From a virus, in the IMG/VR virus record IMGVR_UViG_3300033141_002573, positions 1 to 42,725 of that record: a stretch of DNA of 42,725 nt, one strand, 5' to 3'. Below are positions 2,612 to 38,747 of the stretch, in pieces. Below the pieces are notes generated by a model. It saw only the letters and a program-made list of their open reading frames with translations, was not told the DNA's origin and did no database searches. Both the position numbers and the translations under genes were made by a program. The stretch's first letter is position 1. Every line of letters begins with the position of its first letter.

Positions 2612-2655
2612 CGTACAGTACTTCACATGTGGATATTGTGTTTAGGAGGCACAAA

Positions 2656-21751: not shown

Positions 21752-22342
21752 ATGGGAGGGAGGGATAGCATAGGTGCCGAAGTTGCGGCGCTTGGGATAC
21801 GCCCCAGCAGCCCACTATTTGACGCCACAGTAAGTGTTATCGTGGCGCTAGAGGGGGACCATCTGGTAGCGTGGTGCGGGAATGGAGGTAGTGCATCCCA
21901 AGCGAGCCATTTCTCTGCTGAACTGATGGGAAGGTTTCGTTTGAATCGTCCACCCCTGCGCTCAGTTTCACTTGCTGCATGTCCTGTGGTGCTCACAAGC
22001 ATAGCTAATGACTACGGGTACGATTGGGTCTTCGCTAGGCAGGTTCAGGGGCTAATGCGTCAGGGCGATGTGCTGATAGGACTTACGACAAGCGGTACAA
22101 GTCGTAGTGTTGTCAATGCAATGAAGGTAGGGGGTGCAATAGGTGTAACTCGTATAGTATTCACCGGGGATGTTGACCCTACAACTGTGGCTGGCATGGG
22201 ATTTCCCGATGTAGTTGTGCCCGTACCTGGTAATAGTTCCATTGCCCATATACAGGAAGAGCATACTAAAATGTGCCACACTCTTTGTGCTGTTGTTGAG
22301 GATGTGTTGTTTCGACCCAAGAATGAAGGTGAGACCAAATGA
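21752..22342 (+). CDS. gmhA: Sedoheptulose-7-phosphate isomerase (SIS domain)
   Basis: CGNGGSASQASHFSAELMGRF, TSIANDYGYDWVFARQV, GDVLIGLTTSGTS, IQEEH...H.LC..VE. Confidence 0.92.
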   Translation: MGGRDSIGAEVAALGIRPSSPLFDATVSVIVALEGDHLVAWCGNGGSASQASHFSAELMGRFRLNRPPLRSVSLAACPVVLTSIANDYGYDWVFARQVQGLMRQGDVLIGLTTSGTSRSVVNAMKVGGAIGVTRIVFTGDVDPTTVAGMGFPDVVVPVPGNSSIAHIQEEHTKMCHTLCAVVEDVLFRPKNEGETK

Positions 22343-25235: not shown

Positions 25236-26984
25236 TTAATCCTGAAGGTCTTGTCCTACATCATAGGTGTCTGCGTCTGGGACAGCGATGTCCCTGTAGA
25301 CAGTGCGCCCTCCTTGTGGTTTACCTGTCCACGTAGCCTTTACTCGGACCTTCGCTCCTCGGACAATATCTACGTACACGTATCCGTTGGCATCTGTTTC
25401 CCTGGCAGCTACACCGTCGCCAAAAACCACATTGGTGTCACTTGGTCGTGATAGCACATTTACAACATCAAGACTTCCATCCCCAACACCGAGACTCTGG
25501 CCGCCAGCAATTTCCTTGAGGAAAGCGTACACTCGACAGAGAGATGGATCATCTGGCGCGGAAGGCCCAGATGTTCTCACGAGGGTAATAATGTTCGTGC
25601 TATTCCCACTAACCGTGATCTCTGTGTTGCTGCCCTCATAATTCACTGTGCTTGGTGTCACCAGGTGATAGGTGCCGCTATCGAGGTTGAATGTTACACT
25701 CCCACTACTATCAGTACTCCGTGTTGCAATAATTGCACTTTCATCGGAGTCCTTACAGGTGACCTTTAGATTTGCTACTGTGTTCCCTTCTTCATCCTTA
25801 AAGATGCGCGTGACGGTGTAACTACCACTACCAAATATATCGGCCTGTCTTAACGCAGGGTCGATAGCGTACCCAGACCACGCATTGCTGTCGCCGTTGT
25901 CCACCGCTTCTCCGTCAGAACCGCCGCTTGAACAGAATGCAAACGTGTTCTGGTCGGCACCGTTTACTATCTCAAAACCAGCGGTCGTATTGCCTATACT
26001 CGTACAGTTGAGTAACTGATTGAAATCGGCACCTGAGTTGCTTAAGTAAAAACCCCTCACAGCAGCCCCCGCTCCAACCGCCTTGCACCTGTCGATACGG
26101 TTGTAAGGACCCAATACGTCAAAACCAGTTTCTGTGTGTTCGATGCTCCTGGAGTTCTTAATCCAGCCCGCATTCCCATCGATACTGAAGCCTACGGAGC
26201 ACTGACAGGCGCAGCACCCATCCACAATAACGTAGTGTGCCCCAGCCCGAACATCCAGCCCGACACTTGGGCTACTTGGGTGAAATACAGCCCCCTTTAT
26301 CTCACAGGACGATGCGCTAATTGTAAAACAAGCAGACGCACCAGTACCGTCGATGATGGTTCCTGGTTCGCAGATAACTATTACCCCTGAGGTGTCCAAA
26401 TCAAGGTTACTTTCACTGTAGGTTCCTGGGGCTACAACAACATGATCACCCGAAACAGCCGACGATAATGCCTTTGCAATACTAGCAAATGGTACATCAG
26501 GCGCATCCCCATCGTTGCTGTCATCGCCTGTAGCTTTATTAACGTAGTATGTGGTGAAGAATGGGTCCATGTTTACCTGGCGCAACCTCCTACCAGCAGA
26601 CGTGGGGATGTTGTGAGTAGCCCCCGTAAGGCGTTCATCCCACACCCCGTCTGCTATTTCTTCCGCCAGAGTACCACCCACGTTGAGCTTGTCGAGGTAA
26701 CCAGCACGCGCTGGCGTGTAGTCTGCCTCCGTATAGAAGACCTGCACCTGGTCTTCAAGGTTGTCCGAAGCAATCTTCACCGCACCGTAATCACAGTCAG
26801 CCTCCGTTGGCGTTAGGTCCAGGGTAACAAGACCACTGCCTACAACTGTGGGCGTATTGGTGGCCCCAGCAAAGGCTCCACCATCTTTGCTTATCGTTGC
26901 TACAGGATTCGTAGGGTTTGTGGGTACACCACCGTTGTAGCAGACGATTTCGATGGTCTGGGCAATACCTTTTGGGAAGACCAC
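25236..26984 (-). CDS. Virion/tail-spike-like protein with a right-handed beta-helix (pectin-lyase-like) and C-terminal Ig-like domains
   Basis: ISKDGGAF and IADGVWDE phage structural motifs; YYVNKATGDDSNDG..P..PFASI.KA..G..V.V.PGTY.E beta-helix cap; Asn/Cys-ladder repeats; TDSSGSVTFNLDSGTY. Confidence 0.8.
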   Translation of the reverse strand: MVFPKGIAQTIEIVCYNGGVPTNPTNPVATISKDGGAFAGATNTPTVVGSGLVTLDLTPTEADCDYGAVKIASDNLEDQVQVFYTEADYTPARAGYLDKLNVGGTLAEEIADGVWDERLTGATHNIPTSAGRRLRQVNMDPFFTTYYVNKATGDDSNDGDAPDVPFASIAKALSSAVSGDHVVVAPGTYSESNLDLDTSGVIVICEPGTIIDGTGASACFTISASSCEIKGAVFHPSSPSVGLDVRAGAHYVIVDGCCACQCSVGFSIDGNAGWIKNSRSIEHTETGFDVLGPYNRIDRCKAVGAGAAVRGFYLSNSGADFNQLLNCTSIGNTTAGFEIVNGADQNTFAFCSSGGSDGEAVDNGDSNAWSGYAIDPALRQADIFGSGSYTVTRIFKDEEGNTVANLKVTCKDSDESAIIATRSTDSSGSVTFNLDSGTYHLVTPSTVNYEGSNTEITVSGNSTNIITLVRTSGPSAPDDPSLCRVYAFLKEIAGGQSLGVGDGSLDVVNVLSRPSDTNVVFGDGVAARETDANGYVYVDIVRGAKVRVKATWTGKPQGGRTVYRDIAVPDADTYDVGQDLQD

Positions 26985-27041: not shown

Positions 27042-27404
27042 TTATGTAGCAGACGGTGTGGCAGATGGTACAACGGTTACCTTTCCTCCGATGGGGAAAT
27101 CATCCAGTCTGTTTCCATCCCCATCCTCTGCCAGTTTCACGTGCATGTCCCACACGTAGTCCCCCTCATCCAAATCAACATCACCAAGTCGGATTCTAAC
27201 CTTGTTGTTGTCAGGTGTGTCAACAATTGTAAATGTTGCACTGACTACGGTGCTGCCCCATGCAGGTCGGATCTGCGCCTTAATGTCAGCACCTGTTAGG
27301 TCAACTGGGTTTCCCTCTGAGTCCACCAGTGTGGATGTTGTGTAGTCGATGTCCCCACCAATACCCACAACGAAGTTAACGATACGACCCACATGCTCAG
27401 ACAC
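27042..27404 (-). CDS. Phage baseplate/adaptor Ig-like domain protein (BppU-N-like)
   Basis: GNPVDLTGADIKAQIR...YVWDM...GKVTV; GGAGG RBS before GTG 27404. Confidence 0.7.
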   Translation of the reverse strand: MSEHVGRIVNFVVGIGGDIDYTTSTLVDSEGNPVDLTGADIKAQIRPAWGSTVVSATFTIVDTPDNNKVRIRLGDVDLDEGDYVWDMHVKLAEDGDGNRLDDFPIGGKVTVVPSATPSAT

Positions 27405-28629
27405 CGATCCTCCTCCTTTCTCCGTCACCCGATGCAGTTATTCCTGTACGGGTTTGACCCGTACAGATGATTCTATTCTGTGTTCCATCCCCTGTAAGGT
27501 GTAGTGGTGGTATGGTGGCGTGCAACTCCTCTAAGTTCCCCACCGTCCAGAAGCCGTCGTTGTCGGACTGGCAGTTGAACATAGTGGAAATCCTGTCGGC
27601 TGACCACGCCACCTTCCATTGATGGGTCTCGTCTTGATGCCCGTAAAGGCCAGCAACATTTTTCCACCGTCCATGACCTGCCGGAGACATATGGTAGCTG
27701 GTGCTCGGAGTAACATCACCAGTTGGGGACAACGACCTACCGAGCGGCACACCGTCAACGTATATCAGTACCTCGGTGCCGTCGTACACGAACCCAAACT
27801 GGTGCCAAAGACCGTCACCCAGGTCGGCATAGTACGCGTCCGTCGTGAAGTCGCCCGCCGTAGTTGCCAGATGCACCCCGACTCCATAAGGGTCGTCTCT
27901 GCCACTCACCCACATGTCCCAACCCCCGTGGCCTCCTTCACGCCAGTTGCCAAACAGCCATTGCCAGCCATTGTGGTCGTCAACACGTTGGTCAACTCTG
28001 GCCCACGTAAATGCGCTCAGCGCAGCACTCATTGCGCCATAGTCCAAAGGCCATCGGCTACCGTAGATGTAGTCTCCGTCGTCCCTATTACGCTCCACTC
28101 CACAGCCTACCTGGCCTGTTTGGTCAACCTTGTCTATGTAGTCATTGCCGTGGTCGTGGAGTGCGCACCAGTCCTTGTAGACCTGTGGTGTGCCCGTTCC
28201 TGGGGCACTCTCCTCCAGCGGCCAGTAACCAATACATCCGTCGCTTATCGGCACCACGCCTTCTCGGTTCTCAAACGGCCCACCAGTGCATCCCCTATAG
28301 AGTCGGTAGGTAGTGGGCGCACTGGCCGACAGCGCGGGCAGGCCCAGGCCCAGCACGAGCTTGCGGCTCCCAGAAGTCTGCGAGAATTGCTTCAGTCCCC
28401 ATGCCACCTCGGTGCTGTCGTCGGCTGTGAATACCCGCAGGTCGCTCAGGTCTGCTGCCAGCCCGTTAATGAAGCTCTGCGCTCCGCCCTCCCAGTTGGT
28501 CCCCAGGGCTTCGTCAATCACCAGGTCGGCGGCGAACACGGACGAGCCGTCGTCCGGCATATCCGCAGGGACTTTCTCTGGATTACTGTGGATAGTTAGG
28601 CGGTGTGTAGCACCAGATGGTTCAGCCAA
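27397..28629 (-). CDS. DUF2341-like + LamG/concanavalin-A-like domain virion protein
   Basis: SDLRVF..D, GYWPLEE, GQVG, WHQFGFVYDG..V.IYVDG, DE..W..A.S.D.I...NCQ; TTG start with GGGGAGGT RBS. Confidence 0.82.
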   Translation of the reverse strand: MAEPSGATHRLTIHSNPEKVPADMPDDGSSVFAADLVIDEALGTNWEGGAQSFINGLAADLSDLRVFTADDSTEVAWGLKQFSQTSGSRKLVLGLGLPALSASAPTTYRLYRGCTGGPFENREGVVPISDGCIGYWPLEESAPGTGTPQVYKDWCALHDHGNDYIDKVDQTGQVGCGVERNRDDGDYIYGSRWPLDYGAMSAALSAFTWARVDQRVDDHNGWQWLFGNWREGGHGGWDMWVSGRDDPYGVGVHLATTAGDFTTDAYYADLGDGLWHQFGFVYDGTEVLIYVDGVPLGRSLSPTGDVTPSTSYHMSPAGHGRWKNVAGLYGHQDETHQWKVAWSADRISTMFNCQSDNDGFWTVGNLEELHATIPPLHLTGDGTQNRIICTGQTRTGITASGDGERRRIGV

Positions 28630-28663
28630 GATATACCTCCCCTATCCCATGTATCGTGAAAAG

Positions 28664-28692
28664 AGTATATCACACTTTTCAAGCATAGTCAA
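28664..28692 (-). promoter_or_regulatory. Sigma70-type promoter (extended -10) overlapped by an inverted repeat
   Basis: Minus strand TTGACT, 17-nt spacer, TGaTATACT; imperfect palindrome TGAAAAGAGT-ATATC-ACACTTTTCA (28657-28681) over the -10 box. Confidence 0.8.
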
Positions 28693-28714
28693 CAAGTGTC
28701 GCCACAGCAACGTC

Positions 28715-30454
28715 TTAGGGTTCTGCTCCCGTTTTGGTCATCACGTAGTACGGTTCAACAAGGCCACGGCTGGCGTGTTTCGCACCCATGAAGTGTTCAG
28801 CACAGTTAGGATCAATCGTGCGCATAACAGCGCGTACATCTCTGAGAGGCTCCAGTCTGACAATTTCCCCGTGCGGACCACGGTTATGTATGCGTTCACC
28901 TTCAGCTACCGCTCGCTGGTGAACAACAAGCCAGCGCCTTGTCACGCGCCATAGTTCCTGCAAGGCTGGTTCACTCTCAGGAAGATGATGCAGCACGTTC
29001 GTACAGAAAACCAAGTCGAAACTCCCATTGTCAAATGGTAAACGTGCCCCATCCATGCTATCGAGCGGCAGGCGAGCTCGATAAATTGTAGCACCTGGCG
29101 CATACTCACGTGCAAGCCTAACCATCTCCTGGGAGTTGTCACAGCCTGTGTAGACCATCCCCCGTACTTCCATAAAGTAACGATAGTAGTTGGCGTTGCC
29201 GCAGCCTACGTCGAGTACACTTTGCCCCGGTTCACCAGGTAACCAGTCCACGTTTCTCCATTGCTCTATCCGTGTTTCATGTCGGCTCCATGGCTTGTTT
29301 GCTATGTGTTCCGCCACGGACTTACCAGCATAGTCGCCGAAGGTACAGGTCGTATCCCAGATTTGCCCGTCCGCCCTTAGTTGTGCATCATCGTCATTGT
29401 GCGTCACGCCCAACTCTGCTACCTGATCGTTAATCTCACTATGATCTCCCATCTTTTCAGCCCTCCCGGCTAAACGTCTATAGGTATTAGCGTACGTCGC
29501 GGCCATCCTGTCATTGTCCCACGTAGCGATTGCACGGTCTGCTATCTGCCGCCGCTTACCTCTGAGATTGTTGTCTGTGAGTGCCCTCTGCACTGCATCA
29601 GCCACCGCTTCCGGGTTTGGTGCGGTCATCACGCCTAGTTTCCCGTTGGCTGCCAACTGTGGCCCGTAGTGGCTATTGGGGACCACAGGAATTAGGCCCG
29701 CAGTTAGTGCCTCAGCCACACCAGTTCCCGAACCCTCAGGCCAGGGGGCACAAATCACGTCCCCCTCAGCAATAAGTGCCATGGCCTTCGGATGGGGCAC
29801 TGTACCGAGTGCCTCGGCGATGCCAATCAGTCCACGGCGGTGAAGTTCTTTGTGTATCTGGATGTGGCCTGAGGGGGAGCCGCCGATAATGCGCAGTGAG
29901 AACTTCTCCCCCCGCTTGTGCAGTATTTCCATTGCCTCCAGAAACAGAAGAGGGTTACGGTCAGGGTCGAGCCTACCAAGCCAGACCACTAACCCCTCCC
30001 GCCTCTCCTCCGCCCATGGCACAGGGTCAACACCGAACAGGTTTATAGGTGCGTCGCCGGGGACCGCAGGTGACACACGGAAGGTTACGTCTGCCCATTC
30101 ACTCCCATTTGCTTCTATCCCTTCGAGACTGCCTGACTTTGTGACCGAAGGTATACCCAACTCCTTTGCAACCTTTGCTGCGTACTTGGTGTTTGCCTGC
30201 ACTACGTCAGGTTCCAAGGTAATCATCGCTGCCCGCAGTCCGGCAATGTGTTGCTCAATAGGCTTCCCCTTGGGAACCTGGACGACCTCCCCCCATTGTT
30301 CCATCTCCGCGAGACCACTCGGTTTCGCATTAATGTAGGTGCAGCAACACTCAAACTCCTCAGGTGGCAACCTCCGAATGACCGCCAGGGCATTGACCAT
30401 CCCTCCACCCCACCAGAGGTTCGGCACATTGAAAAGTATCTTGATTCGGTTCAA
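28715..30454 (-). CDS. GT4 glycosyltransferase + class I SAM methyltransferase fusion
   Basis: WWGGG, LGRLD, EGSGTGVAEA.. (E-x7-E); VLDVGCG, GCDNSQEMV, LPFDNGSFDLV, VLHHL, ELWRV. Confidence 0.9.
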   Translation of the reverse strand: MNRIKILFNVPNLWWGGGMVNALAVIRRLPPEEFECCCTYINAKPSGLAEMEQWGEVVQVPKGKPIEQHIAGLRAAMITLEPDVVQANTKYAAKVAKELGIPSVTKSGSLEGIEANGSEWADVTFRVSPAVPGDAPINLFGVDPVPWAEERREGLVVWLGRLDPDRNPLLFLEAMEILHKRGEKFSLRIIGGSPSGHIQIHKELHRRGLIGIAEALGTVPHPKAMALIAEGDVICAPWPEGSGTGVAEALTAGLIPVVPNSHYGPQLAANGKLGVMTAPNPEAVADAVQRALTDNNLRGKRRQIADRAIATWDNDRMAATYANTYRRLAGRAEKMGDHSEINDQVAELGVTHNDDDAQLRADGQIWDTTCTFGDYAGKSVAEHIANKPWSRHETRIEQWRNVDWLPGEPGQSVLDVGCGNANYYRYFMEVRGMVYTGCDNSQEMVRLAREYAPGATIYRARLPLDSMDGARLPFDNGSFDLVFCTNVLHHLPESEPALQELWRVTRRWLVVHQRAVAEGERIHNRGPHGEIVRLEPLRDVRAVMRTIDPNCAEHFMGAKHASRGLVEPYYVMTKTGAEP

Positions 30455-32730
30455 CGTGTAAGCTCCCTATAGACCTTAGCGTACTCGGCGCTGAAACGTT
30501 TTGCATCGTACCGTTGTCCCGCCCACTCCTTCATCGTGGTGCGTTTACCACGCAGTTCGGTGTTGTCGAGCGCCTGTGAGAGGCCATCTGCAATCTTCTC
30601 AGGTTCACTCCCAACGGTGACACCGTACTCCCCCACCAGTCCCGGTCCGAAGCCACCTGTTGAGACAACAGGTATAGCTCCCCCACGCATCCCCTCGGCG
30701 ACACCGAGGCCAAATCCCTCCGGCCACGGCGCGGTTACCACATCAGCCTCAGCTACCAGTTCAAGCGCCTTGGTGTGGGGCACAAGTCCGCTTAGTTCGA
30801 CTCGCTCCTTAAGACCATCCACCCAGGGAAACTGCTTGGGGTCGAAGCTGCCATCCATGTTGGCACCGATGATGCGTACTCTGAAGTCCTGCCGTCGCCT
30901 CCAGAGTACATTAAGGGCGTTGAAGAAGACTTGTGGGTTCCTGTCGTGGTCGAGGCGTCCAAGGTAGGTGATAAGGTGGTCCACTCGGTCCCGAACAGGA
31001 GGCGCATCCACACCATTGAGTATCATAGGTTGGTCTCCCGGAATAGCGGGGGAAACACGGAACACACAATCAGCGAACTCAGCGCCATTTGCCTTCGCAC
31101 CGAGCATACTGTGGCCTGTTGTGACACAGAGGATACCCATATCGTGGGCCACACAGGCCATCTCAACCGTATTCGCCTGGACCACATCCGGCTTGGTCTC
31201 TGACAGCACCTCACGAATTGCTTCAGGCAATTCCTCCTCTGTATTTGGCGTAATCCGGTGTACAACGCCATACTCACGGAGGGCTTCATCAGCGCCTTGC
31301 CTTACGCGACGTATTAAGAAATGTACGTCGAATTCGTTGCGCGGTAGGTACTTCACCAGGTAATTCGTCCAGTTGTGTAAACCTCCCCACCAGGCATTTG
31401 GAACGAAGAAGAGGATTCGAGGCACATTCCTTTTGGGCGAAGGGGCCTTCACACGCCGAATGCCCGCTTTTGTCCATTTGCGAGCAAAGGCCGCATCCGC
31501 CCGGCGCATCCCGTCGGTGTCGCCTACTCGCCGCGTGAGACCCTGCGGCATATCACCATGTAGTGGGCCTCCCAGGTGTCGCAACTGTACAGTGCCGTCA
31601 ATCCAGAGTGTGTATCCTGCCTCTTTAATCCGCCAGAGGAGGTCGCGATCACTCTGACCCTGCAAACTGCGGAACGGTTCGGGGTGTAGTTGACCAGGTT
31701 CCTCCTCGGCATTGCGTACAGCCTCCATGCGGAAGAGGTTGTTGCTACCCGTAATGTCGAATGGCTTCGCGGGTTGGCCGCGCAAGCTCGGCCAGTATAT
31801 GTCTGTCCAAGGTGCAATTGCACCGATGCGGGCATCCGTGTGCATCCGTTGCACAAGCGGTCCTAGCCAACCAGGCGGGGTAAGCATATCGTTGTCTATC
31901 CACGCAAAGTATTTGCTTGTTGTGTGGTCATACGCTAACTGCCGCCCACCAGGGCAGCCAAGGTTCTTGTCGGACTCTAGTACCAGGCAACGGTCGTCAC
32001 CAAGCATCTGCCGCACCGAATAGAAAAACTTCCCAACCGGCTCTGTGCTGCCGTTGTCCACCAAGATCAGCCTGTATGGTGCCCAAGTATTGGCAATAAC
32101 CTGTGCCACGCAGGAACGGGTGACCTCGAGCTCGTTGTGAGCAAGTATAACAATGTCTGTAACAGGCCACATGACCTTATGGTAGCGCACCAGGTAGTTC
32201 TCTACTGCTTGGTTCCCATCCGCTTCCATGTGGATACACGGGAGGCCTGCCCTTGCAGCGAACCGTGCGCAGCGATCACTGTCCGTATGGACAATGTGAG
32301 GCCGGAAGTCGAGAACAACCCTGAGGAATGCCCACCATTCATCATCTTGAGGGAGAAATCTAACTCCTCCATGTTTACACATTTCTGTAGCGTCAGTTGC
32401 TGGATTGCCTTCCTCAACAATGAAGTACCACTCAACAGTATTGGAGGGCATACCTTTGGCTAGATAACTCGCAAATGTTTCTTGGTCTCCTCCACGGGCC
32501 ACACGTGTGCAAAATAGAACACGAATAGGTTCACCATTAGCAGGGGGATAAGCGGGGCCTGGGTAACCATACCACGTGTCAGGGGGTGTGGCCGGACGGG
32601 CATTCCGAGGACTCTGAGGTGGCTCCTGGGGCACAATGCTGATTAACCTCCGTTTCCCCTCCAGCCTCTCGGTTTTGATTACCCTACCTCGCTCGTCCAC
32701 TACCTCGTGAACAACAGCCATGGAAACCAC
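30451..32730 (-). CDS. Multidomain glycosyltransferase (partial GT-B N-domain + GT2 + GT4)
   Basis: GT2: IVILAHN, LVDNGST, NLG, WIDND, DRDLLWR. GT4: LGRLD, EGFGLGVAEG. Confidence 0.9.
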   Translation of the reverse strand: MVSMAVVHEVVDERGRVIKTERLEGKRRLISIVPQEPPQSPRNARPATPPDTWYGYPGPAYPPANGEPIRVLFCTRVARGGDQETFASYLAKGMPSNTVEWYFIVEEGNPATDATEMCKHGGVRFLPQDDEWWAFLRVVLDFRPHIVHTDSDRCARFAARAGLPCIHMEADGNQAVENYLVRYHKVMWPVTDIVILAHNELEVTRSCVAQVIANTWAPYRLILVDNGSTEPVGKFFYSVRQMLGDDRCLVLESDKNLGCPGGRQLAYDHTTSKYFAWIDNDMLTPPGWLGPLVQRMHTDARIGAIAPWTDIYWPSLRGQPAKPFDITGSNNLFRMEAVRNAEEEPGQLHPEPFRSLQGQSDRDLLWRIKEAGYTLWIDGTVQLRHLGGPLHGDMPQGLTRRVGDTDGMRRADAAFARKWTKAGIRRVKAPSPKRNVPRILFFVPNAWWGGLHNWTNYLVKYLPRNEFDVHFLIRRVRQGADEALREYGVVHRITPNTEEELPEAIREVLSETKPDVVQANTVEMACVAHDMGILCVTTGHSMLGAKANGAEFADCVFRVSPAIPGDQPMILNGVDAPPVRDRVDHLITYLGRLDHDRNPQVFFNALNVLWRRRQDFRVRIIGANMDGSFDPKQFPWVDGLKERVELSGLVPHTKALELVAEADVVTAPWPEGFGLGVAEGMRGGAIPVVSTGGFGPGLVGEYGVTVGSEPEKIADGLSQALDNTELRGKRTTMKEWAGQRYDAKRFSAEYAKVYRELTR

Positions 32731-32736
32731 ACCCTC

Positions 32737-33615
32737 CTACATACGCGGTGATCGAACATAGGATGAAGCAAACTGTAAGGCATCACTTACAGCCTTACGG
32801 CTGTAACCGCAAGTAGCCCATGCCTTTGCCAGTCCAACAAGAAATGCGTCACCTGCTCCAATAACCTGTGGCTTATCGACTCTGGGGGGTTCCACATGCC
32901 ACATACCGTCCATATCGGAGGCCTCAATATGCTTGTCTGCATTTGTTACAACAGCCAGTGTAACATTGAGAGACGAACGTATCTCTGATGCCAAGGACTT
33001 TCCATCTAGGCCGAGCACATTTGCTATTCCCGCAGCTTCAGACCAATTACACACAAGCGCATCTACCCCCGAAAACATACCTACTATCTTTGACGGTTTT
33101 GTGTTAACTATTACAGGACAGTCAACTTGGTGTAACGTTTTCATCAGCGGCTCAATTGTGTGTTCACTGACTACACCCTTATTGTAGTCGCTAACCACGA
33201 AAATGTCAAGGTCACCAGAAATCATTAATGCTGGTGACAACACGTTGTTACCCAAAAACGTTTCCTCCACATCAGTTCTTGAAACACAGTCAGTTTCCGA
33301 CGTGAAAGACCTAAACTTCAATGTTGTAACAGAAAGTTCACGAGAAAGGAAATATGAGATATGCTCGCGTCTGCACACATCCTCTATTAGCGACCCCCAC
33401 ACATCATCCTTTCCAATAGCACCCCACAACGTCACATCGAAACCTTCCCGTGCTGCAAGGGCTGCAACGTTACCAGCACCACCAAGCCGGTATGTCAGAT
33501 TGTTACCCCGCAGAATAAGTATCTCGTCATTCTCTGGGGAATAACGCTCGAACCTTCCATACACTGATACGTCAAGCATGACATCTCCGACTACACCCAT
33601 TCTAACCTTATCCAT
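32737..33615 (-). CDS. hldA: PfkB-family heptose-7-phosphate kinase (HldE/RfaE domain I-like)
   Basis: VGDVMLD...R.SPE, LGGAGNVA, TTLKFR, R.D.E, SDYNKGVV, GAGDAF; GGAGAG RBS before ATG 33615. Confidence 0.85.
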   Translation of the reverse strand: MDKVRMGVVGDVMLDVSVYGRFERYSPENDEILILRGNNLTYRLGGAGNVAALAAREGFDVTLWGAIGKDDVWGSLIEDVCRREHISYFLSRELSVTTLKFRSFTSETDCVSRTDVEETFLGNNVLSPALMISGDLDIFVVSDYNKGVVSEHTIEPLMKTLHQVDCPVIVNTKPSKIVGMFSGVDALVCNWSEAAGIANVLGLDGKSLASEIRSSLNVTLAVVTNADKHIEASDMDGMWHVEPPRVDKPQVIGAGDAFLVGLAKAWATCGYSRKAVSDALQFASSYVRSPRM

Positions 33616-35398
33616 TACTCTCCTTCTCCATAGTAGTGATGAGTGGTGTGAAGTAAGGTATACGCCCTCCCTCAAATCTTTCCCTAAGATGATGTGGTAA
33701 GGCATCAGCAAGTGTGGTGCTACCCTCACGGGTTGTCCAGTCACACCCCCCGACAAACCTCAAGCCACATTGGGCCGCCATGTCCTCCAGTGATCTTCTT
33801 CCAACAGTAGTAAGTTTCAACTCAGGTATGTGTTCCTCACCACCTGGGCTGTATTCTACTGTCATTACCAGACGCCCACCGGGCCTAATAGCTTTAGCGA
33901 ACGCCTCCATAAAGGCTCTTCTGTTAGGAACATGTTCCAGAACAGAGATACTTACACCTATATCAAACGATTCGGGTGTAAGTTGCGCACGTTGAATATC
34001 TGAACATATGTAACACGGACCATCCGGCCACGTGGTGACCAGACCATTTGGCGGATCGTTGACAATAGTTTTGGATGGGCTTTCGAACCACCACGCTTCA
34101 GTAAATCCAATAGGATCAACACAGGTCACATTTTCACCAAAGGTTCTACAGAGAGACAGCGCAAGAAGATCGTTGTTCGCTCCTACAACAAGAATCTTAG
34201 CGGTATCTATGTCGATGTTTGTATTGCTCATTTCTACAAGTGCCGCAGGATATTCCCAATCCCGAAAGAAACCTTTACCCTTGAGCATCCACTCCCCCCT
34301 TAGGGTGCTGTATAGTGGGGAGTTCATCTCCTTCTTACTGAGACACCGTGTCCTCGCGGGGTTGCCTCCATACCAAGTTCTCACTGACGTGTAGTGAAGT
34401 GGGGCAGAAAGTTCCCTGTATACAGATGAGTACCTGGCGGCAATGTTGCGCCAGGTAAATGGAAGAGACATAGTTCTACTGCTCGCAATCTGAGGCTTCG
34501 ACCCCCACCAACCACCGTCGGCTATGTCATTGAGGGCCGAAACCGCACCCTTAGGATCATTAAACCTGTAGAATATTCCAGTGCTCCCATCCACAACCAT
34601 GTCCTTCGCCATACCTGTAGGTGTGGTAACAACAGGGAGACCTGATGCCATTGCCTCAAGGAGGCTTGCGGGTCCTCCCTCCGACCTACTTGTAATAAGA
34701 TAGACATCACAACTACGGTAGACTTGAGGGTAATCCTCGTATGCCAAGTCCATTACTGTACAAACGAGTCCATTAGATTCTGCAACAGATGTTTCAACCT
34801 CCCATGTGTCATCACCACCAGCAAGAAGAACCACCTCAAATCTTTCTGGGTCCAGTAGCTCTATTATCTCACAGAATGTAGCTGCTCCTTTGTTTTCCAT
34901 GGAGAATGGCGTATCCCGCGTACCATTTGGAAGGTATCTCTTGCCGACACGTAGGACACGACACCTTTTATGTTTGACCTCTAGTGGGGCTGGGTAAAAT
35001 CTTTCTATGTCTACACCATGAGGGATGTACCTACACTTATCACAGTCAACACCCGCTTGGGCAAGCTCCCCAATGTCGCTTGTGTTCAAAACAGCAATAA
35101 TGTCAGCATCTCTGAACACATCCATGGTGGCATTACCATACATCAGGTTTCCGTTACGTATGCCCTGACCATGATGGCTTACAACACAGGGGTGAGGAAT
35201 TGAAAGTCCACGCTCTGCTGCCCAGTTAGGTCTAAGGATATGGTAAACGTCTGCGTCTACAGGAAGTTCACTGCGCACAAAGTCCATGTTGGAATGGTTT
35301 GCTATCTGGGATGCTATATCTCCCAGAACCCAACCTTGGTGCCCGTAGAACACAAAGTTTACTAACACAACCTGCCTCCTATGCGGCGTAAGCCTCAT
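33608..35398 (-). CDS. GT4 glycosyltransferase + SAM methyltransferase fusion
   Basis: IPHGVD..RF.P, NKG, SRSEGGPASLLEAMASGLPVV; RDWEY, SFD..SISVLEHV, RPGGRLV. Confidence 0.9.
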   Translation of the reverse strand: MRLTPHRRQVVLVNFVFYGHQGWVLGDIASQIANHSNMDFVRSELPVDADVYHILRPNWAAERGLSIPHPCVVSHHGQGIRNGNLMYGNATMDVFRDADIIAVLNTSDIGELAQAGVDCDKCRYIPHGVDIERFYPAPLEVKHKRCRVLRVGKRYLPNGTRDTPFSMENKGAATFCEIIELLDPERFEVVLLAGGDDTWEVETSVAESNGLVCTVMDLAYEDYPQVYRSCDVYLITSRSEGGPASLLEAMASGLPVVTTPTGMAKDMVVDGSTGIFYRFNDPKGAVSALNDIADGGWWGSKPQIASSRTMSLPFTWRNIAARYSSVYRELSAPLHYTSVRTWYGGNPARTRCLSKKEMNSPLYSTLRGEWMLKGKGFFRDWEYPAALVEMSNTNIDIDTAKILVVGANNDLLALSLCRTFGENVTCVDPIGFTEAWWFESPSKTIVNDPPNGLVTTWPDGPCYICSDIQRAQLTPESFDIGVSISVLEHVPNRRAFMEAFAKAIRPGGRLVMTVEYSPGGEEHIPELKLTTVGRRSLEDMAAQCGLRFVGGCDWTTREGSTTLADALPHHLRERFEGGRIPYFTPLITTMEKESNG

Positions 35399-36575
35399 TA
35401 TAGGCTATAGCAATACGTGCAGATAACCTTGGCTCTGACCTGTCGGCTAGATAGATAAACACTATCCAATACAGAAACCTCAAAAGTCTCTCCCAATCAT
35501 AACCCTCAATCCGAGGGTTAGCCTCCAAAGACCTGAGGCCATTCCGCAACCCCTTAGGTGACCTAACGTCGATTGTCCAACCTTCCCCCGAATAAAAGGA
35601 CTCCCCCAGCGTCAGAACTCTTCTTCCGAGAGCGAGAGATTCGATACCTACAGTGCTGTTTATCGTCACGACACCATCGCTATTCCCAATAAGGTCGTGG
35701 ATGTTAGCAGATGTAACAATGGCATAGCTATTGGGGTCGGCATCGCACATGTAGGACTCTACGGGTGTCCTGTCACGTGGGTGACGCTTGAACACAGGAA
35801 ACCATTCAGGTGTGGCCTCATGGACAACAAGTTCTACTAGATCCTTAGGTCGGTTTACTACCGTTTCCGGCCACCACATCGTACCGTCCGATGGTGTCTG
35901 TAAAGGAACAAACAACATAGGCTTACCATGGGTATTCGGCAAAGGTTCCCATCCCTGGTCATACTTACTAGTACGTCTGCGTGACCATTGCTGGATGAAT
36001 GCAGTAATACTTAACATTGCACGGTCCGAAAGTGGGTGGTCCCTTCGTACCATCCACCCACTTTTTAGCCATGATCTACCCTGGAAGTACAGCCCAATTG
36101 GGTCAATGATGTGCATGTGATACCATGTTCTTGGGCTACAGAAAAAGGCCCCCTCGAAGTACAACACAGGAATATTGAGACGTTTAGCTATAATGGATGC
36201 CGCACGGCATTGGGGTGTAGTATTGCTCCAGATACAAAGAAGTGCTGGACCATCCTTTCTTATCATCTGCTCCAAATAACCAATGGTGGACCACACCCGA
36301 TGGTCAACCTGCCCAACCTTGATGTATCGTACACCGTCACCACCATTACCGCGCCACTTAGCGAATGCAACTATGTCGTAAATGTCATAATCACCCGATG
36401 GCATCGGGCCGCGAGGAAAGGCATTCGCCCAGTCGGTGCCCAGACTGTGCCATTTCGAATCTATCCCCCATTTCTGGAATATCGGAATCCACTGCGACGG
36501 CCAGTCGCGCTTGATAGAATCCACGCCAAGAAACAGCACATGCTGGCTGGTAGGGATCATAGTTTTTCTATTCAT
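35379..36575 (-). CDS. KpsS/KpsC-like capsule biosynthesis protein (putative CMP-Kdo beta-transferase, GT107-like)
   Basis: YFEG.F, DP.G, FVPLQTPSD, KRHP, IHDLI, VVTINSTVGIESL..G..V.TLG.SFY..GWT. Confidence 0.82.
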   Translation of the reverse strand: MNRKTMIPTSQHVLFLGVDSIKRDWPSQWIPIFQKWGIDSKWHSLGTDWANAFPRGPMPSGDYDIYDIVAFAKWRGNGGDGVRYIKVGQVDHRVWSTIGYLEQMIRKDGPALLCIWSNTTPQCRAASIIAKRLNIPVLYFEGAFFCSPRTWYHMHIIDPIGLYFQGRSWLKSGWMVRRDHPLSDRAMLSITAFIQQWSRRRTSKYDQGWEPLPNTHGKPMLFVPLQTPSDGTMWWPETVVNRPKDLVELVVHEATPEWFPVFKRHPRDRTPVESYMCDADPNSYAIVTSANIHDLIGNSDGVVTINSTVGIESLALGRRVLTLGESFYSGEGWTIDVRSPKGLRNGLRSLEANPRIEGYDWERLLRFLYWIVFIYLADRSEPRLSARIAIAYNEAYAA

Positions 36576-37746
36576 TTTCGTTAGGATTACTACGCGGAGC
36601 CATAAGCATCAGAGGCCATGCCATCCGCTTTGCGTCCATTGCCTTCATACATTCACGTCCGCATCTACCTGTAAACGTAGGGTCATCTCCACAAGGACAA
36701 CATTCTATCTCACTTGCAATCATAGCACATGAGTTCTTATACCACTTCATTCGTAGTTCAGGAGCAATGACAGAAAAGACCACTCCAATGAATGGTCTAC
36801 CATTCTTCTGAACACCAGCAGCTAAGTGGTACAGCCCGCTGTCCGTAGAGAGTAGAGCATTACATAGAGAAAGAATTGCAGCTACCTGACGGATCTTCAA
36901 CCCTATTGCAAGGTGGACCCCTTTTAAGCCCCCAAAGAGTGGCTCAGCGGCATCCCCGGAGTCGAATACAATACAGTCCCATCCCTCAGACACTCTGTCC
37001 CGTATGAAGTCTGAAACATTATCTGGCTCCAACGTCCTACGTGGGTCAGTCGCAAACGGAGCAATGCCTATCCTATTATCCCCTATACCTCTGTCCTCCA
37101 TCCACCTCTTTGCCCAGGCTACTTCATCGTTACGGAGGAAATAGTCCACAGAACCATCCTCGATGTTCAGCCCAAATGCCTTTCCAAAAAGACTAGTCCT
37201 GTCCACATCGTTACGGAGCGGGCTTCGTTCAACGTAGTGGTTAACATCAAGTTCAACATCAAATGCCCACTCAACGTAATCCTCCATAGGCGCGGCCTTA
37301 TGAACATAGGGGTTCCCATCGAAAATGGGGACAAGGTGTCTTGCAACATAGAGGTATATGTCGAGATGATCATACTCCTTCTTGAGGGCACGTATGGAGG
37401 CGGTTAACATGAGCAGATCGCCCAGCCCTCCACTACGAAGAATGGCAACAGAGCGAGCCATCCTAAGATCCTGCTCGCTCATTATCTTTGTAGAGAACGG
37501 TTTGCGGTATTGCCGAAGCAACTCTACAGAACGCCCAACACCATCAACCTGAGATACATGGATAACAGGACGAGAAAGACGCTTTGGTTGCAACGCAGCA
37601 ACAGTATCACTTGTACGGACATGGGCACGCTGATCTCTAATACCACTATGCCCTGTGTCAGCAGGTCTTGGGAGTCTACTAGGTTTCTCAGGGAGAACAG
37701 CACTTGGTATTTGTTGTTTGTTGTCTCCTACATCCATCTGTGGCAT
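36568..37746 (-). CDS. GT9 heptosyltransferase-like glycosyltransferase with an N-terminal extension
   Basis: RSGGLGDLLM, NPYV, IGIAP.A...R, LLSTDSGLYHLAA, VVF, C.PC...C...CM; AAGGAGG RBS. Confidence 0.88.
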   Translation of the reverse strand: MPQMDVGDNKQQIPSAVLPEKPSRLPRPADTGHSGIRDQRAHVRTSDTVAALQPKRLSRPVIHVSQVDGVGRSVELLRQYRKPFSTKIMSEQDLRMARSVAILRSGGLGDLLMLTASIRALKKEYDHLDIYLYVARHLVPIFDGNPYVHKAAPMEDYVEWAFDVELDVNHYVERSPLRNDVDRTSLFGKAFGLNIEDGSVDYFLRNDEVAWAKRWMEDRGIGDNRIGIAPFATDPRRTLEPDNVSDFIRDRVSEGWDCIVFDSGDAAEPLFGGLKGVHLAIGLKIRQVAAILSLCNALLSTDSGLYHLAAGVQKNGRPFIGVVFSVIAPELRMKWYKNSCAMIASEIECCPCGDDPTFTGRCGRECMKAMDAKRMAWPLMLMAPRSNPNENE

Positions 37747-37769
37747 TGCCTCCTTGCTGGTTTGGTTCA

Positions 37770-38747
37770 TCACAGATATACCCACTTGCGACCCATACGA
37801 TAACCGCTGTAACTTACCGTGCCTGCGTAGTTACCATCATTCGTCACACGCACCTTAATGCTTTCAGCATCATGTGTCTCAAGGATAGAGTAACTGAAAA
37901 GCTCGCTGTCTAACGTCAGCGATATTGGTCCGAAGAGGATAAGTTTTGTGTGGGGAATAGTAATATCAACAAACGCCCCAGACTCAAGACCACTAATAGT
38001 GCCGCTGAACCTTACGGTATGAACCGCACCAGCACCTGTCCACAAGTTTCGGTCGTGTCCATATGGAGCATTGTTGGCAGAGGTAACGTTTCCTGCGGCG
38101 TCTAACACCATGCTGGCTACAAGAATATCTCCCTCTGCGGGCGAAGATGATGTACTCGCAACCCATTGGATTATCCCATCTCTGGTAGTCCTACCCATTG
38201 TGCGCCCGAAAACATAGTTGGTGGTCCCATTAGTAAGACCCTGTATGTAAAAGAAACTTACAACAAACTTGTCTCCAGACGTAATGGCACTTCCAAGAGG
38301 AGCAGACCATTCTATCCTACCCTGAGTTTGATCATACGCCGTTACCTCCCGCACAGCGCCGTTGTTTGCCCCAGATGTAATGATAACCCATGCCGATACC
38401 CAAAAGTCATCCTCCTCTGACAGCGAGGATGATGTTAGATACGTTGTCCCTCCTCCATTTGCAGTCCCAGAAACCTCAAGCCCCGATGACATAGAAAACC
38501 CACGACCGCGTATAACACCAACAATGGGTTCACCCGCATCGGGACGAGCAATACGGCCCGTAGATGTATCTATGACACACTGATCTGGATCTCGGTTGAT
38601 TAGCCCATCCTCAACCAACTTACCCAAAAGCACGTTACCAATTGTGTGCTCGAGGTAGTGGGCAACCGTGTTATGGTCTGATGGGAGTACAGGGTCGGCT
38701 TCTACCCTCTCCCACGGGATACCAAGTATAGGACTTGTATCTGACAT
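37770..38747 (-). CDS. Tail/virion structural protein
   Basis: LPSDHN; L.E.DDFW...VIITSG.N.G.VR.VT.Y motif seen in phage tail proteins; Ser/Thr/Gly-rich. Confidence 0.65.
   Translation of the reverse strand: MSDTSPILGIPWERVEADPVLPSDHNTVAHYLEHTIGNVLLGKLVEDGLINRDPDQCVIDTSTGRIARPDAGEPIVGVIRGRGFSMSSGLEVSGTANGGGTTYLTSSSLSEEDDFWVSAWVIITSGANNGAVREVTAYDQTQGRIEWSAPLGSAITSGDKFVVSFFYIQGLTNGTTNYVFGRTMGRTTRDGIIQWVASTSSSPAEGDILVASMVLDAAGNVTSANNAPYGHDRNLWTGAGAVHTVRFSGTISGLESGAFVDITIPHTKLILFGPISLTLDSELFSYSILETHDAESIKVRVTNDGNYAGTVSYSGYRMGRKWVYL

Follow-up and report, generated by a model that had tools for sequence, protein, structure and literature searches.

Paralogous GT9 enzymes in the head and tail modules of an uncultured phage and a neighboring candidate heptose/Kdo glycan gene cluster

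Results

Six glycan genes are embedded in the late virion operon

The window analyzed here, a 42,725-nt stretch of DNA, is part of a record that represents the complete 108.5-kb genome, with terminal repeats, of an uncultured phage. Since the genome is complete and carries terminal repeats, it is unlikely that the genes described below are a bacterial island joined by mis-assembly, a possibility raised in a preliminary description of this DNA. The minus strand between positions 28715 and 37785 is occupied by six contiguous genes (Table 1), which overlap their neighbors or are separated from them by at most 8 nt once the start of the kinase gene is corrected. This arrangement and the enzyme families had been proposed in the preliminary description, and both are borne out, the families by Pfam and NCBIfam domain assignments. 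The cluster also lies, as had been claimed, between tail genes on the same strand, with the tail hub, BR0599-like and tape-measure genes upstream, and the lectin-like and β-helix/Ig fiber genes downstream. Structural matches of the hub are to gpD, Gp44 and VgrG, and it has orthologs in two distant relatives, G001 and G002.

Table 1. Cluster genes, flanking genes and two related genes lying apart from the cluster (window coordinates unless indicated)
Feature	Coordinates	Strand	Evidence and remarks
GmhA (sedoheptulose-7-phosphate isomerase)	21752..22342 (longest ORF from 21686)	+	Replication/repair arm
β-helix + Ig-like tail fiber/spike	25236..26984	-	DUF1565, Beta_helix, Big_1; weak tail-fiber phrog_32409
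Lectin-like (ConA/LamG-type) protein, probably tail accessory/fiber part	27397..28629	-	Laminin_G_3 1.8e-4, below cut-off
GT4 + class-I SAM methyltransferase fusion	28715..30454	-	Glycos_transf_1 2.4e-16; Methyltransf_11 2.6e-19
759-aa multi-module enzyme (N-terminal 190 aa, GT2, GT4)	30451..32730	-	Glycos_transf_2 3e-21
HldA-type D-glycero-β-D-manno-heptose-7-phosphate kinase (PfkB family)	32737..33615	-	TIGR02198 3e-32
GT4 + class-I SAM methyltransferase fusion	33608..35398	-	Glyco_trans_1_4 5e-19; Methyltransf_11 1.4e-8
GT107-like (KpsC/KpsS-type) retaining ulosonic-acid transferase, single module	35379..36575	-	PF05159 (Capsule_synth) 9e-15
GT9#1, heptosyltransferase-family GT-B enzyme	36568..37785	-	PF01075 6.6e-9
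BR0599-like tail protein, 325 aa	37770..38747	-	PF09356 weak; Atlas structure row BR0599; directly upstream of GT9#1
Tail/baseplate hub (gpD/gp44/VgrG-like), 911 aa	39001..41736	-	Atlas tail-protein clusters 0.95
GT9#2	Genome 54081-55316, outside window		Between major capsid and head-tail adaptor genes

The cluster forms part of the late virion operon, and glycan genes are found within both the head and the tail modules. Its genes run in the same direction as the tail genes and overlap with them, the start of GT9#1 overlapping the upstream BR0599-like gene by 16 nt, and they are translationally coupled to the late head and tail genes. Promoter- or terminator-like sites are not enriched at the cluster; the 85-nt gap upstream of the lectin-like gene holds a promoter-like site. 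Altogether, about eight units for sugar transfer and two for methylation are encoded by the phage, along with two heptose-precursor enzymes. None of the six cluster enzymes has hydrophobic segments. Moreover, no multi-pass membrane protein is encoded in the phage genome, which is thus without flippase, polymerase or transporter, and no capsule-export matches were found among its other ORFs. The genome carries a tyrosine recombinase and five N6/N4 methyltransferases. Thymidylate-synthase-type hydroxymethylase, TET/JBP dioxygenase and C5 cytosine methyltransferase (PF00303, PF12851 and PF00145) are all missing from the complete genome, so that a hydroxymethyl acceptor base is not detectable.

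The GT9 type of the phage keeps the catalytic motifs of its family

GT9 membership holds at the profile and fold level. Against a PF01075 gathering cut-off of 22 bits, GT9#1 scores 35.9 bits and GT9#2 56.7 bits. Both bear N-terminal extensions of 110-130 aa; in GT9#1, residues 1-66 are predicted to be disordered and are followed by a β-hairpin. When the AF2 model of GT9#1 (pLDDT 83.2) was compared with known structures using Foldseek, the leading matches, down to at least rank 18, were all GT9 enzymes and were followed by a large gap. They include 3tov, 1psw (WaaF), 2gt1, 6dfe, 4rap, 2h1h, 2h1f and 4rb4, structures of WaaC and TibC being among them. While GT9#1 matches TibC as well in fold (TMq 0.55) as it does WaaF, sequence places it outside the TibC/AAH clade, since the GT9 subfamily profile gives 5.5e-26 for 3tov, 2e-23 for WaaF and 8e-20 for WaaC vs 1.5e-3 for TibC. 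Residues D123, D315, G317 and H320 show no variation among 28 diverged GT9 homologs and align to 3tov and WaaF. These GT9 motifs are an N-terminal G-D, which contains the catalytic Asp, and a C-domain D-(S/T)-G-x-x-H donor motif; we take their Asp residues to correspond to Asp13 and Asp261 of WaaC. Four C-terminal Cys are likewise invariant across the GT9 homologs.

The second gene encodes a KpsC-like enzyme lacking one conserved Asp

KpsC is the best match of the GT107-like enzyme both by sequence (6mgd, 3.5e-11 in a PDB search) and by fold. Q226-x3-D230 and H265-P266 align to the QXXXD motif, which holds the nucleophile Asp, and the HP motif of KpsC, as these are defined for GT107 in PMC10148158, and all four residues are invariant in five homologs. 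Trp42, Glu66 and Asp67 are absolutely conserved in both modules of KpsC homologs, and Asp67 binds the Kdo acceptor (PMC10148158). In the phage enzyme, W116 is present and E141 matches the general-base Glu, but Gly (G142) stands at the position of Asp67, within a "FEGAFF" motif found in all four full-length homologs. The Trp-Glu-Asp signature of GT107 is therefore incomplete, and no residue could be assigned to the general-acid His94. KpsC and KpsS act together with KpsMTED export on a (lyso)phosphatidylglycerol acceptor; neither KpsMTED nor KpsF/U nor a lipid-anchor context was found in the phage, although the host might supply such a system. Family membership of the enzyme suggests that the sugar it adds may be Kdo. 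Close homologs were found on metagenome contigs only, mostly marine, and in none of the 185,579 species genomes scanned. On the marine contigs, the KpsC-like gene is adjoined by HIRAN (DNA-binding; on two contigs), radical-SAM and methyltransferase genes, with virion genes not among the neighbors.

The phage encodes the first two heptose-precursor enzymes

The start of the kinase is most likely ATG 33615, which has an AAGGAG site upstream and gives a protein of 292 aa rather than the 339 aa of the longest ORF (to 33756) taken previously. The HldE-type assignment made at the time stands at the family level, since HldE domain I (TIGR02198) is the best family and the next, ribokinase (2e-10), is 22 orders weaker. 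However, the TIGR02198 score of 111.9 bits is below the equivalog cut-off of 345. In the PDB, the kinase matches HldA (4e84, 3e-10) alone, with the GGAGNVA and GAGD motifs aligning. By sequence, the kinase thus resembles HldA specifically.

The gmhA gene sits, as the preliminary description had it, in the early/replication arm, apart from the late genes. Its product matches PRK13936 (2e-41) and TIGR00441 (5e-38), both under the NCBIfam equivalog cut-offs, and its best PDB matches are GmhA structures. Alignment with 5i01 and 1x92 shows that the catalytic E79, Q190 and H198 are kept, together with H75. GmhA can be told from DiaA by the catalytic residues, which are Glu65, Gln172 and His180 in E. 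coli GmhA, the Glu being replaced by Ser in DiaA and by Gln in the DiaA-like 5by2 (PMC4697000). Judging from sequence, a GmhA with intact catalytic residues, an HldA-like kinase and GT9s in one genome form a coherent heptose logic, from which we infer that ADP-L-glycero-D-manno-heptose is the donor of the GT9s. The pathway is incomplete: no GmhB, HldC/HddC-type nucleotidyltransferase, KdsB or WaaA was found in the phage genome, and a CMP-sugar synthetase (PF02348) is absent. The donors would consequently have to come from a host producing both ADP-heptose and CMP-Kdo, the CMP-β-Kdo having to be host-derived since PF02348 is absent. The heptose/Kdo assembly line originally proposed thus stands as to the heptose families and the kept QXXXD, HP and Glu of the KpsC-like enzyme, whereas the pathway is incomplete and Asp67 is replaced in that enzyme.

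Three further multi-domain proteins complete the cluster. The 759-aa enzyme was previously read as half a GT-B fold followed by GT2 and GT4; the GT2 (residues 193-327) and GT4 (Glyco_transf_4 and Glycos_transf_1, 448-728) modules are evident, but the N-terminal part gives a marginal GT4-N match (E 0.03). The two GT4-methyltransferase fusions are not close paralogs (pairwise E-value just 3e-5). The one next to the KpsC-like gene has a 56%-identical homolog on a marine contig (L007), two methyltransferase genes downstream of a KpsC-like gene.

The GT9 genes occupy conserved slots in head and tail modules

The major capsid protein of the phage (phrog_1623, 9e-38) is homologous to the products of Streptomyces phage capsid genes. 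In Streptomyces phage Coruscant, the head genes follow the same order, but no glycosyltransferase lies among them. G001 and G002 share 33-37% identity with our phage in TerL, 31-34% in portal and 29-30% in capsid, and in both of them the two GT9s occupy the same two slots. The head slot reads capsid-small ORF-GT9-adaptor in both relatives. The tail slot reads hub-BR0599-like-GT9, directly in G001 and after a four-gene cassette in G002 (GT4, FkbM methyltransferase, PF01663 enzyme and a 141-aa ORF), so that the BR0599-like orthologs (35-41% identity) are adjacent to GT9 in the former and four genes upstream in the latter. The cassette by the tail GT9 is thus absent in G001 and comprises six genes here. 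On more remote viral contigs (L015, L017, L018 and L020/L021), the same GT9 type is likewise found just downstream of capsid genes, either immediately or with one or two small ORFs in between, and pyruvyl-transferase or O-methyltransferase genes often come after it.

Both GT9 genes thus belong to what is conserved in the head and tail modules of this lineage, and only the tail cassette is variable. The earlier view of a cluster inserted among virion genes accordingly does not fit the GT9s. Similarly, the synteny that the preliminary description had suggested looking for in viruses exists for the GT9 slots, but hardly for the other genes: among 14 related GT9-bearing viral records, the kinase was found in one, and GmhA and PF05159 in none. 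What sets this phage apart is that it combines linked heptose-precursor genes with a Kdo-type transferase. Ser runs and Pro-Ser/Pro-Thr tails, which are possible acceptor marks, were not found in the virion proteins.

Discussion

We propose, at roughly even chances, that the phage glycosylates its own virion proteins late in expression, using host ADP-heptose, the supply of which it would boost, and probably CMP-Kdo. In this cytoplasmic system, the two GT9s would first modify structural proteins by attaching or extending heptose, the head GT9 being encoded between capsid and adaptor and the tail GT9 at the end of the tail-hub genes. GmhA and the HldA-type kinase, corresponding to the first two steps of the pathway, would raise heptose supply, with GmhB, adenylyltransferase and epimerase provided by the host. 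The variable cassette beside the tail GT9 would then elaborate the glycan: the KpsC-like GT107 may transfer an ulosonic acid from a CMP-activated donor, Kdo drawn from the host pool being the simplest candidate. More sugars may be supplied by the three GT4 modules and the single GT2 module, and the two methyltransferase domains may methylate them. The benefit might be shielding or altered adsorption. The more specific version, in which protein heptosylation at two sites, with one GT9 each for head and tail, is followed by a swappable cassette that builds a methylated heptose/Kdo glycan, so that the particle would bear sugars of the LPS-inner-core type, is put forward tentatively and is the less probable of the two statements.

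Whether the target is the virion or the host envelope had been left open; the virion is now favored because gene order is conserved across relatives, with the envelope an improbable but real alternative. There, lipid A-core or a KpsS-type glycolipid would gain heptose, Kdo, hexoses and methyls on the cytoplasmic side of the inner membrane, and host transport could carry the product out, possibly masking receptors and leading to superinfection exclusion or keeping progeny off debris. KpsC/KpsS and WaaC/WaaF are peripheral enzymes of the cytoplasmic face, and host MsbA or KpsMT could export their lipid-linked products, so that the lack of phage transporters would be no obstacle. The GT9 profile is nearest to WaaF/WaaC-type LPS enzymes, the recombinase makes lysogeny possible, and LPS/cell-wall gene sets of cyanophages are usually read in this way (PMC12801897). 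Against this stand the translational coupling to late head and tail genes, unlike an independent moron near an integrase, and the capsid-adaptor GT9 slot, which is kept across deeply diverged phages. Relatives with GT9 and little else would, furthermore, pointlessly compete with host WaaC/WaaF, and the KpsC-like enzyme is without the conserved Kdo-acceptor-binding Asp. Several observations count, for their part, against a virion target: a GT9 profile far closer to LPS heptosyltransferases than to TibC, virion proteins free of Ser- or Pro-rich acceptor marks, marine neighbors of the KpsC-like gene that are not virion genes, a gmhA in the early arm, a donor supply that is assumed, and the scarcity of kinase, GmhA and PF05159 in GT9-bearing relatives.

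DNA hypermodification, a third target not raised in the preliminary description, in which heptose/Kdo glycans on modified phage bases would evade restriction, seems very improbable. Phage pathways that place heptose, di-heptose or a Kdo-like sugar on 5hmC have been reconstituted, and such clusters were seen near structural genes (Pyle et al., 10.1101/2023.12.21.572611; Cell Rep 2024); both the location of gmhA in the replication arm and the HIRAN genes next to KpsC-like genes would fit. Yet our complete genome is without enzymes for a hydroxymethyl base and has N6/N4 methyltransferases instead, its roughly eight transferase modules are more than the known DNA glycans, of one to three sugars, would call for, and the DNA enzymes described resemble T4 β-GT or GT-A rather than GT9/GT107 (10.1101/2023.12.21.572611). 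It is also quite unlikely, if less so, that the product is a free or lipid-linked glycoconjugate outside virion and LPS, such as a methylated oligosaccharide or glycolipid serving as decoy, signal or metabolic sink, or that the GT9-like proteins have turned structural and non-enzymatic. The former could be reconciled with the marine KpsC-like homologs, whose neighbors, B12-radical-SAM and methyltransferase genes, recall natural-product clusters, but a diffusible product would hardly account for conserved placement in head and tail modules. For either version, the GT9 N-terminal extensions that are disordered or without domain assignment could be invoked; catalytic motifs invariant across the diverged homologs nevertheless argue against loss of activity.

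How does the virion glycosylation proposed here compare with known systems? To our knowledge, the bacterial autotransporter heptosyltransferases (BAHT: TibC, AAH; PDB 4RAP/4RB4) are the sole GT9-fold enzymes that transfer ADP-heptose to protein Ser in the cytoplasm. Theirs is the mechanism suggested here for the phage GT9s, which match their fold, but the sequence match to TibC is marginal, and neither an autotransporter-like acceptor nor Ser-rich repeats could be found. As in LPS inner-core assembly (GmhA, HldE/HldA, WaaC for HepI, WaaF for HepII), the precursor families and the GT9 fold and motifs are the same, but the phage pathway is truncated (no GmhB, HldC or WaaA) and its GT9s are N-terminally extended and lie inside head and tail modules. 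Kdo2-lipid A is probably not their acceptor. KpsS/KpsC are retaining β-Kdo transferases of ABC-transporter-dependent capsules (PMC10148158), with which the phage enzyme shares PF05159, the QXXXD Asp, HP, general-base Glu and conserved Trp; it differs by its single module, the Gly in place of Asp67 and the lack of KpsMTED context. DNA-glycan systems resemble ours in using host heptose/Kdo-type donors and in clusters at times near structural genes, but need 5hmC-generating enzymes, which are missing here (10.1101/2023.12.21.572611). Cyanophages P-SSM2, S-SCSM1 and S-SCSM2R similarly combine many glycosyltransferases with LPS-precursor genes (KdsA, KdsB and epimerases in S-SCSM2R), which have been read as host-surface modification; unlike our GT9s, they are not reported as conserved capsid-adaptor or tail-hub occupants (PMC12801897).

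PMC12619734, citing Freeman et al. 2023 (Cell Host Microbe), reports virion glycosylation by structural-operon glycosyltransferases in mycobacteriophages. These systems (Che8, Corndog and Myrna) reportedly place glycans on cytoplasmically made subunits of capsid and tail tube, with methyltransferases in some phages. Our phage likewise has glycosyltransferase and methyltransferase genes inside its structural operon. However, the enzymes are GT9, GT107 and GT4-methyltransferase fusions, sugar-precursor enzymes (GmhA, HldA) are encoded, and the implied sugars, heptose and ulosonic acid, point to a host making ADP-heptose and CMP-Kdo. A tblastn search of 50,697 deposited phages with GT9#1, the KpsC-like enzyme and the kinase returned almost nothing and, in keeping with the preliminary description, the literature searched contained no virion glycosylation combining heptose, Kdo and methyl groups.

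We know of experimental evidence for glycosylation of phage particles in just a few actinophages. If the more specific version of our proposal is correct, virion glycosylation would for the first time be described outside actinophages, and no virus would previously have been known to carry a Kdo-type sugar linked to protein. The GT9s would represent a new class of protein glycosyltransferases distinct from TibC/AAH, and a second known protein-directed GT9 branch. The phage is a good test case because the GmhA and the HldA-type kinase that it encodes suggest which sugar is the donor. Both ADP-heptose and CMP-Kdo are made by E. coli, so the system could be rebuilt from synthetic genes without the native host. 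Given that the same GT9 type lies behind capsid genes in many uncultured phages, virion glycosylation would then be widespread, and adsorption, immune recognition and stability of such phages could hinge on glycans whose genes are annotated as "LPS biosynthesis" or auxiliary metabolism.

A glycan gene cluster embedded in the late genes of a complete phage genome

The source record is a complete viral genome of 108,503 bp with direct terminal repeats, the window being its first 42.7 kb. The left arm carries replication and repair genes on the plus strand, including an N6/N4 DNA methylase, a PolA with UDG-like and exonuclease domains, a primase-like protein, a split SbcC/SbcD, and a radical-SAM enzyme. 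The late genes form a single minus-strand block from ~24.1 kb to 66.0 kb, transcribed in the order large terminase, portal, a 604-aa protein, major capsid protein (phrog_1623, 9e-38), a 138-aa ORF, a GT9 gene (GT9#2), head-tail adaptor, tape measure, proteins of 430 and 776 aa, a 911-aa hub resembling gpD/gp44/VgrG-type proteins, an 84-aa ORF, a 325-aa protein resembling the BR0599 domain, the six-gene glycan cluster, a lectin-like protein, a 128-aa ORF, and a beta-helix/Ig fiber. The major capsid protein is 25% identical to those of Streptomyces phages such as Coruscant, whose head module shares with this phage the order protease, capsid, small ORF, and connector. However, the Coruscant module has no glycosyltransferase, whereas this phage has GT9#2 there.

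All six cluster genes were found as the preliminary description had them, with the same domain content, except that in the gene read as a GT-B half plus GT2 and GT4, the latter two domains are borne out while the N-terminal 190 aa are only marginally GT4-N-like. The genes overlap or abut one another and the upstream tail gene, and promoter- or terminator-like sites are not enriched among them. For the kinase, ATG 33615 is the most likely start, with an AAGGAG site ahead and an 8-nt overlap with the preceding stop. Hydrophobic segments are absent from all six proteins. The G+C content is uneven, at 55–57% in the left half (28–32 kb) and 47–49% in the right half (33–38 kb), which would fit a cassette assembled from two sources. 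The sole real gap, of 85 nt, lies beyond the end of the cluster; within it, a good sigma-70-like site (TTGACT-17-TATACT plus a TG upstream) points at the lectin-like gene.

Elsewhere in the genome, five separate N6/N4-type methyltransferase genes (PF01555) amount to a large commitment to base methylation, presumably as a defense against restriction. A plus-strand ORF of 448 aa interrupts the otherwise minus-strand structural block; it contains two hydrophobic segments, one strong and the other marginal, and matches nothing in Pfam or PHROG. A tyrosine recombinase adjoins a ComM/Mg-chelatase-like ATPase, which could reflect a temperate lifestyle or a role of the recombinase in resolving dimers.

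Coordinates of the glycan genes and other features (window and genome numbering coincide; L-numbers are loci or contigs, L002 and L004 being further parts of this genome)
Feature	Position	Strand	Evidence or remark
GT9 (GT9#1)	36568-37785	-	PF01075
KpsC/KpsS-like	35379-36575	-	PF05159, 9e-15
GT4 + class-I methyltransferase	33608-35398	-	domain search
PfkB kinase	32737-33756 (longest ORF)	-	HldE domain I best family, 3e-32; ribokinase second, 2e-10
GT2 + GT4	30451-32730	-	
GT4 + methyltransferase	28715-30454	-	domain search
Gap beyond cluster	28630-28714		
GT9#2	54081-55316 (L002:13081-14316)	-	411 aa; PF01075, 2.9e-15; between major capsid gene and head-tail adaptor
N6/N4-type methyltransferases	1259-2611; 65008-66030; 96674-98395; 102490-103281; 103563-104321		PF01555
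448-aa ORF	51438-52784 (L002:10438-11784)	+	
Tyrosine recombinase	88915-89748 (L004)		Phage_integrase, 3e-34
ComM/Mg-chelatase-like ATPase	87362-88891 (L004)		
Neighbors of closest KpsC-like homologs	L006:42-521, 1720-2706; L009:1505-1984; L007:3-524, 1684-2993		
Polysaccharide pyruvyl transferases	L018:10345-11463; L020:12061-13137		loci where they follow a capsid- or terminase-linked GT9
Capsid- or terminase-linked GT9 fused to TylF-type sugar O-methyltransferase	L014 (9791-13466)		
HldA-like kinase of another GT9-bearing viral record	G007:C1:54469-55299 (L028:6284-7315)		TIGR02198, 6e-26

Two GT9 genes keep their places among head and tail genes

GT9#1 and GT9#2 are paralogs (28% identity, 4e-25). 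Searched against 1.84 billion representatives, a profile built from both retrieved 249 proteins at E ≤ 1e-30, and many of these are tandem or fused forms. With the subfamily profile, 3tov, WaaF, and WaaC give strong matches and TibC no more than a marginal one; membership of the BAHT group is thus not supported. The structural model of GT9#1 is confident from residue 110 on, with residues 1–66 disordered, and its leading structural matches are GT9 enzymes throughout, TibC included.

Almost no close relatives came from single-protein IMG/VR scans or from tblastn on deposited phages, and only profile-based scans recovered any. The GT9 profile found 14 viral loci, two of which come from true relatives, G001 and G002 (the latter a complete 93.9-kb genome), which are 33–37% identical to this phage in TerL, 31–34% in portal, and 29–30% in capsid. 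Both have the order capsid, small ORF, GT9 (36–38% identical to GT9#2), and adaptor, and both have hub, BR0599-like protein, and then a GT9 (31–37% identical to GT9#1), which follows directly in G001 and after a short cassette in G002. The genes beside the tail GT9 differ from genome to genome: G001 has none, G002 has a GT4, an FkbM methyltransferase, a PF01663 phosphodiesterase-like enzyme, and a 141-aa ORF, and the window phage has the five other cluster genes. The suspicion that the cluster might be a bacterial island joined by mis-assembly, raised in the preliminary description, is dispelled by the complete record with its terminal repeats, the overlaps with tail genes, and the same-slot GT9s in two relatives.

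More distant viral contigs likewise tie this GT9 type to head genes, as in portal, capsid, GT9 (L015); capsid, GT9 (L017); a protease/capsid-like gene with GT9 two ORFs downstream (L018); and protease, capsid, a 189-aa ORF, and a tandem GT9 (L020/L021). The small ORFs that separate capsid gene and GT9 resemble, by BLAST, neither one another across phages nor the GT9 N-terminal extensions. Polysaccharide pyruvyl transferases often follow the GT9 on these distant contigs, and in one contig the GT9 is fused to a methyltransferase; sugar-tailoring chemistry seems to differ from phage to phage. The other components are rare: an HldA-like kinase (30% identical to that of the window phage) is present in only 1 of the 14 GT9-bearing records, itself without GmhA, and GmhA and PF05159 in none.

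Heptose-precursor enzymes and a KpsC-like transferase

Among solved structures, phosphoheptose isomerases are nearest to the phage GmhA, and DiaA follows closely. The published rule is based on a catalytic Glu-Gln-His set retained by GmhA; where GmhA has the Glu, E. coli DiaA has Ser and a DiaA-like protein from Colwellia has Gln, and changing Glu to Gln abolishes activity (PMC4697000). Glu79, Gln190, and His198 occupy the corresponding positions in the phage protein; we therefore reject a DiaA identity, and an active isomerase appears the better reading. As for the kinase, its description as HldE-type is upheld by its best family and by its sole solved relative, heptose-7-phosphate kinase HldA, with the GAGD motif kept. 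It falls below the NCBIfam equivalog cut-off, as does GmhA, and by that standard both are divergent family members rather than orthologs. The complete phage genome has no cytidylyl/adenylyltransferase (PF01467), NTP_transferase (PF00483), CMP-sugar synthetase (PF02348), or GmhB (TIGR00213). The phage therefore provides only steps one and two of the heptose pathway, and it must depend on a host making ADP-heptose and CMP-Kdo.

The KpsC-like protein matches solved KpsC modules in sequence (3.5e-11), and KpsC is the best structural match to its model, which is of moderate quality (pLDDT 73.6). The QXXXD nucleophile (Q226, D230), HP motif (H265-P266), general-base Glu (E141), and conserved Trp (W116) are all kept, and are invariant in its few homologs. 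In contrast, Asp67, which binds the Kdo acceptor in KpsC and is conserved in every KpsC homolog, is Gly in the phage protein, and the position of the KpsC general-acid His could not be mapped in it. Judging from these residues, the enzyme resembles a Kdo transferase in its donor half-site but probably acts on an acceptor other than Kdo. Only four close homologs exist among 5.8 billion proteins, the closest (60% identity) being encoded on a 54-kb contig. Profile scans of JGI metagenomes found relatives only on short contigs, presumably marine. One of these keeps the GT4-methyltransferase gene downstream of the KpsC-like gene, beyond two methyltransferase genes; the other neighbors are HIRAN, B12-binding radical-SAM, and methyltransferase genes, not virion genes.

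No particular host emerges from the comparisons. GmhA homologs are about equally distant (~40–50% identity) from many Gram-negative lineages, the TerL and KpsC-like profiles matched nothing among 185,579 species genomes, neither a spanin nor a lipobox was seen in the phage, and the capsid offers only its low likeness to Streptomyces phages.

Likely target of the glycan

Across phages only ~30–37% identical in core proteins, both GT9 slots are conserved, one between capsid and adaptor and the other after the tail-hub genes; the best explanation is that the enzymes act on virion proteins. The exchangeable tailoring genes, soluble enzymes, late co-expression, lack of export genes, and precedent of mycobacteriophage virion glycosylation (cited in PMC12619734) fit such action, and we therefore favor virion glycosylation, with about even confidence. 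Heptose would be the GT9 donor, as supported by the phage's own GmhA and kinase, and a CMP-ulosonic acid, most simply Kdo, that of the KpsC-like enzyme. Virion proteins have no Ser runs or Pro-Ser/Pro-Thr tails that might serve as acceptor tags.

A serious rival, although one to which we give a rather low probability, is remodeling of LPS or capsule: by sequence the GT9s lie nearer WaaF/WaaC than TibC, and lipid-linked products could be exported by host systems. The phage genome itself encodes no multi-pass membrane protein. Glycan hypermodification of DNA is a real phenomenon involving heptose and Kdo-like sugars (Pyle et al.), but is unlikely here because hydroxymethyl-base enzymes were not found in the phage.

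The literature we searched contains no description of a phage virion-glycosylation system based on GT9 or GT107, in agreement with the preliminary description's claim of novelty, nor any report of a link between virion genes and heptose-precursor genes in phages. Chloroviruses encode capsid glycans bearing methylated sugars. Heptose nucleotide-sugar enzymes have reportedly been found in viruses (by Tang et al., in Science in 2024). What is distinctive about this phage is its linked GmhA and kinase, pointing to the donor sugar, its KpsC-type transferase, and clear evidence for a conserved head-plus-tail GT9 pair accompanied by a variable cassette.
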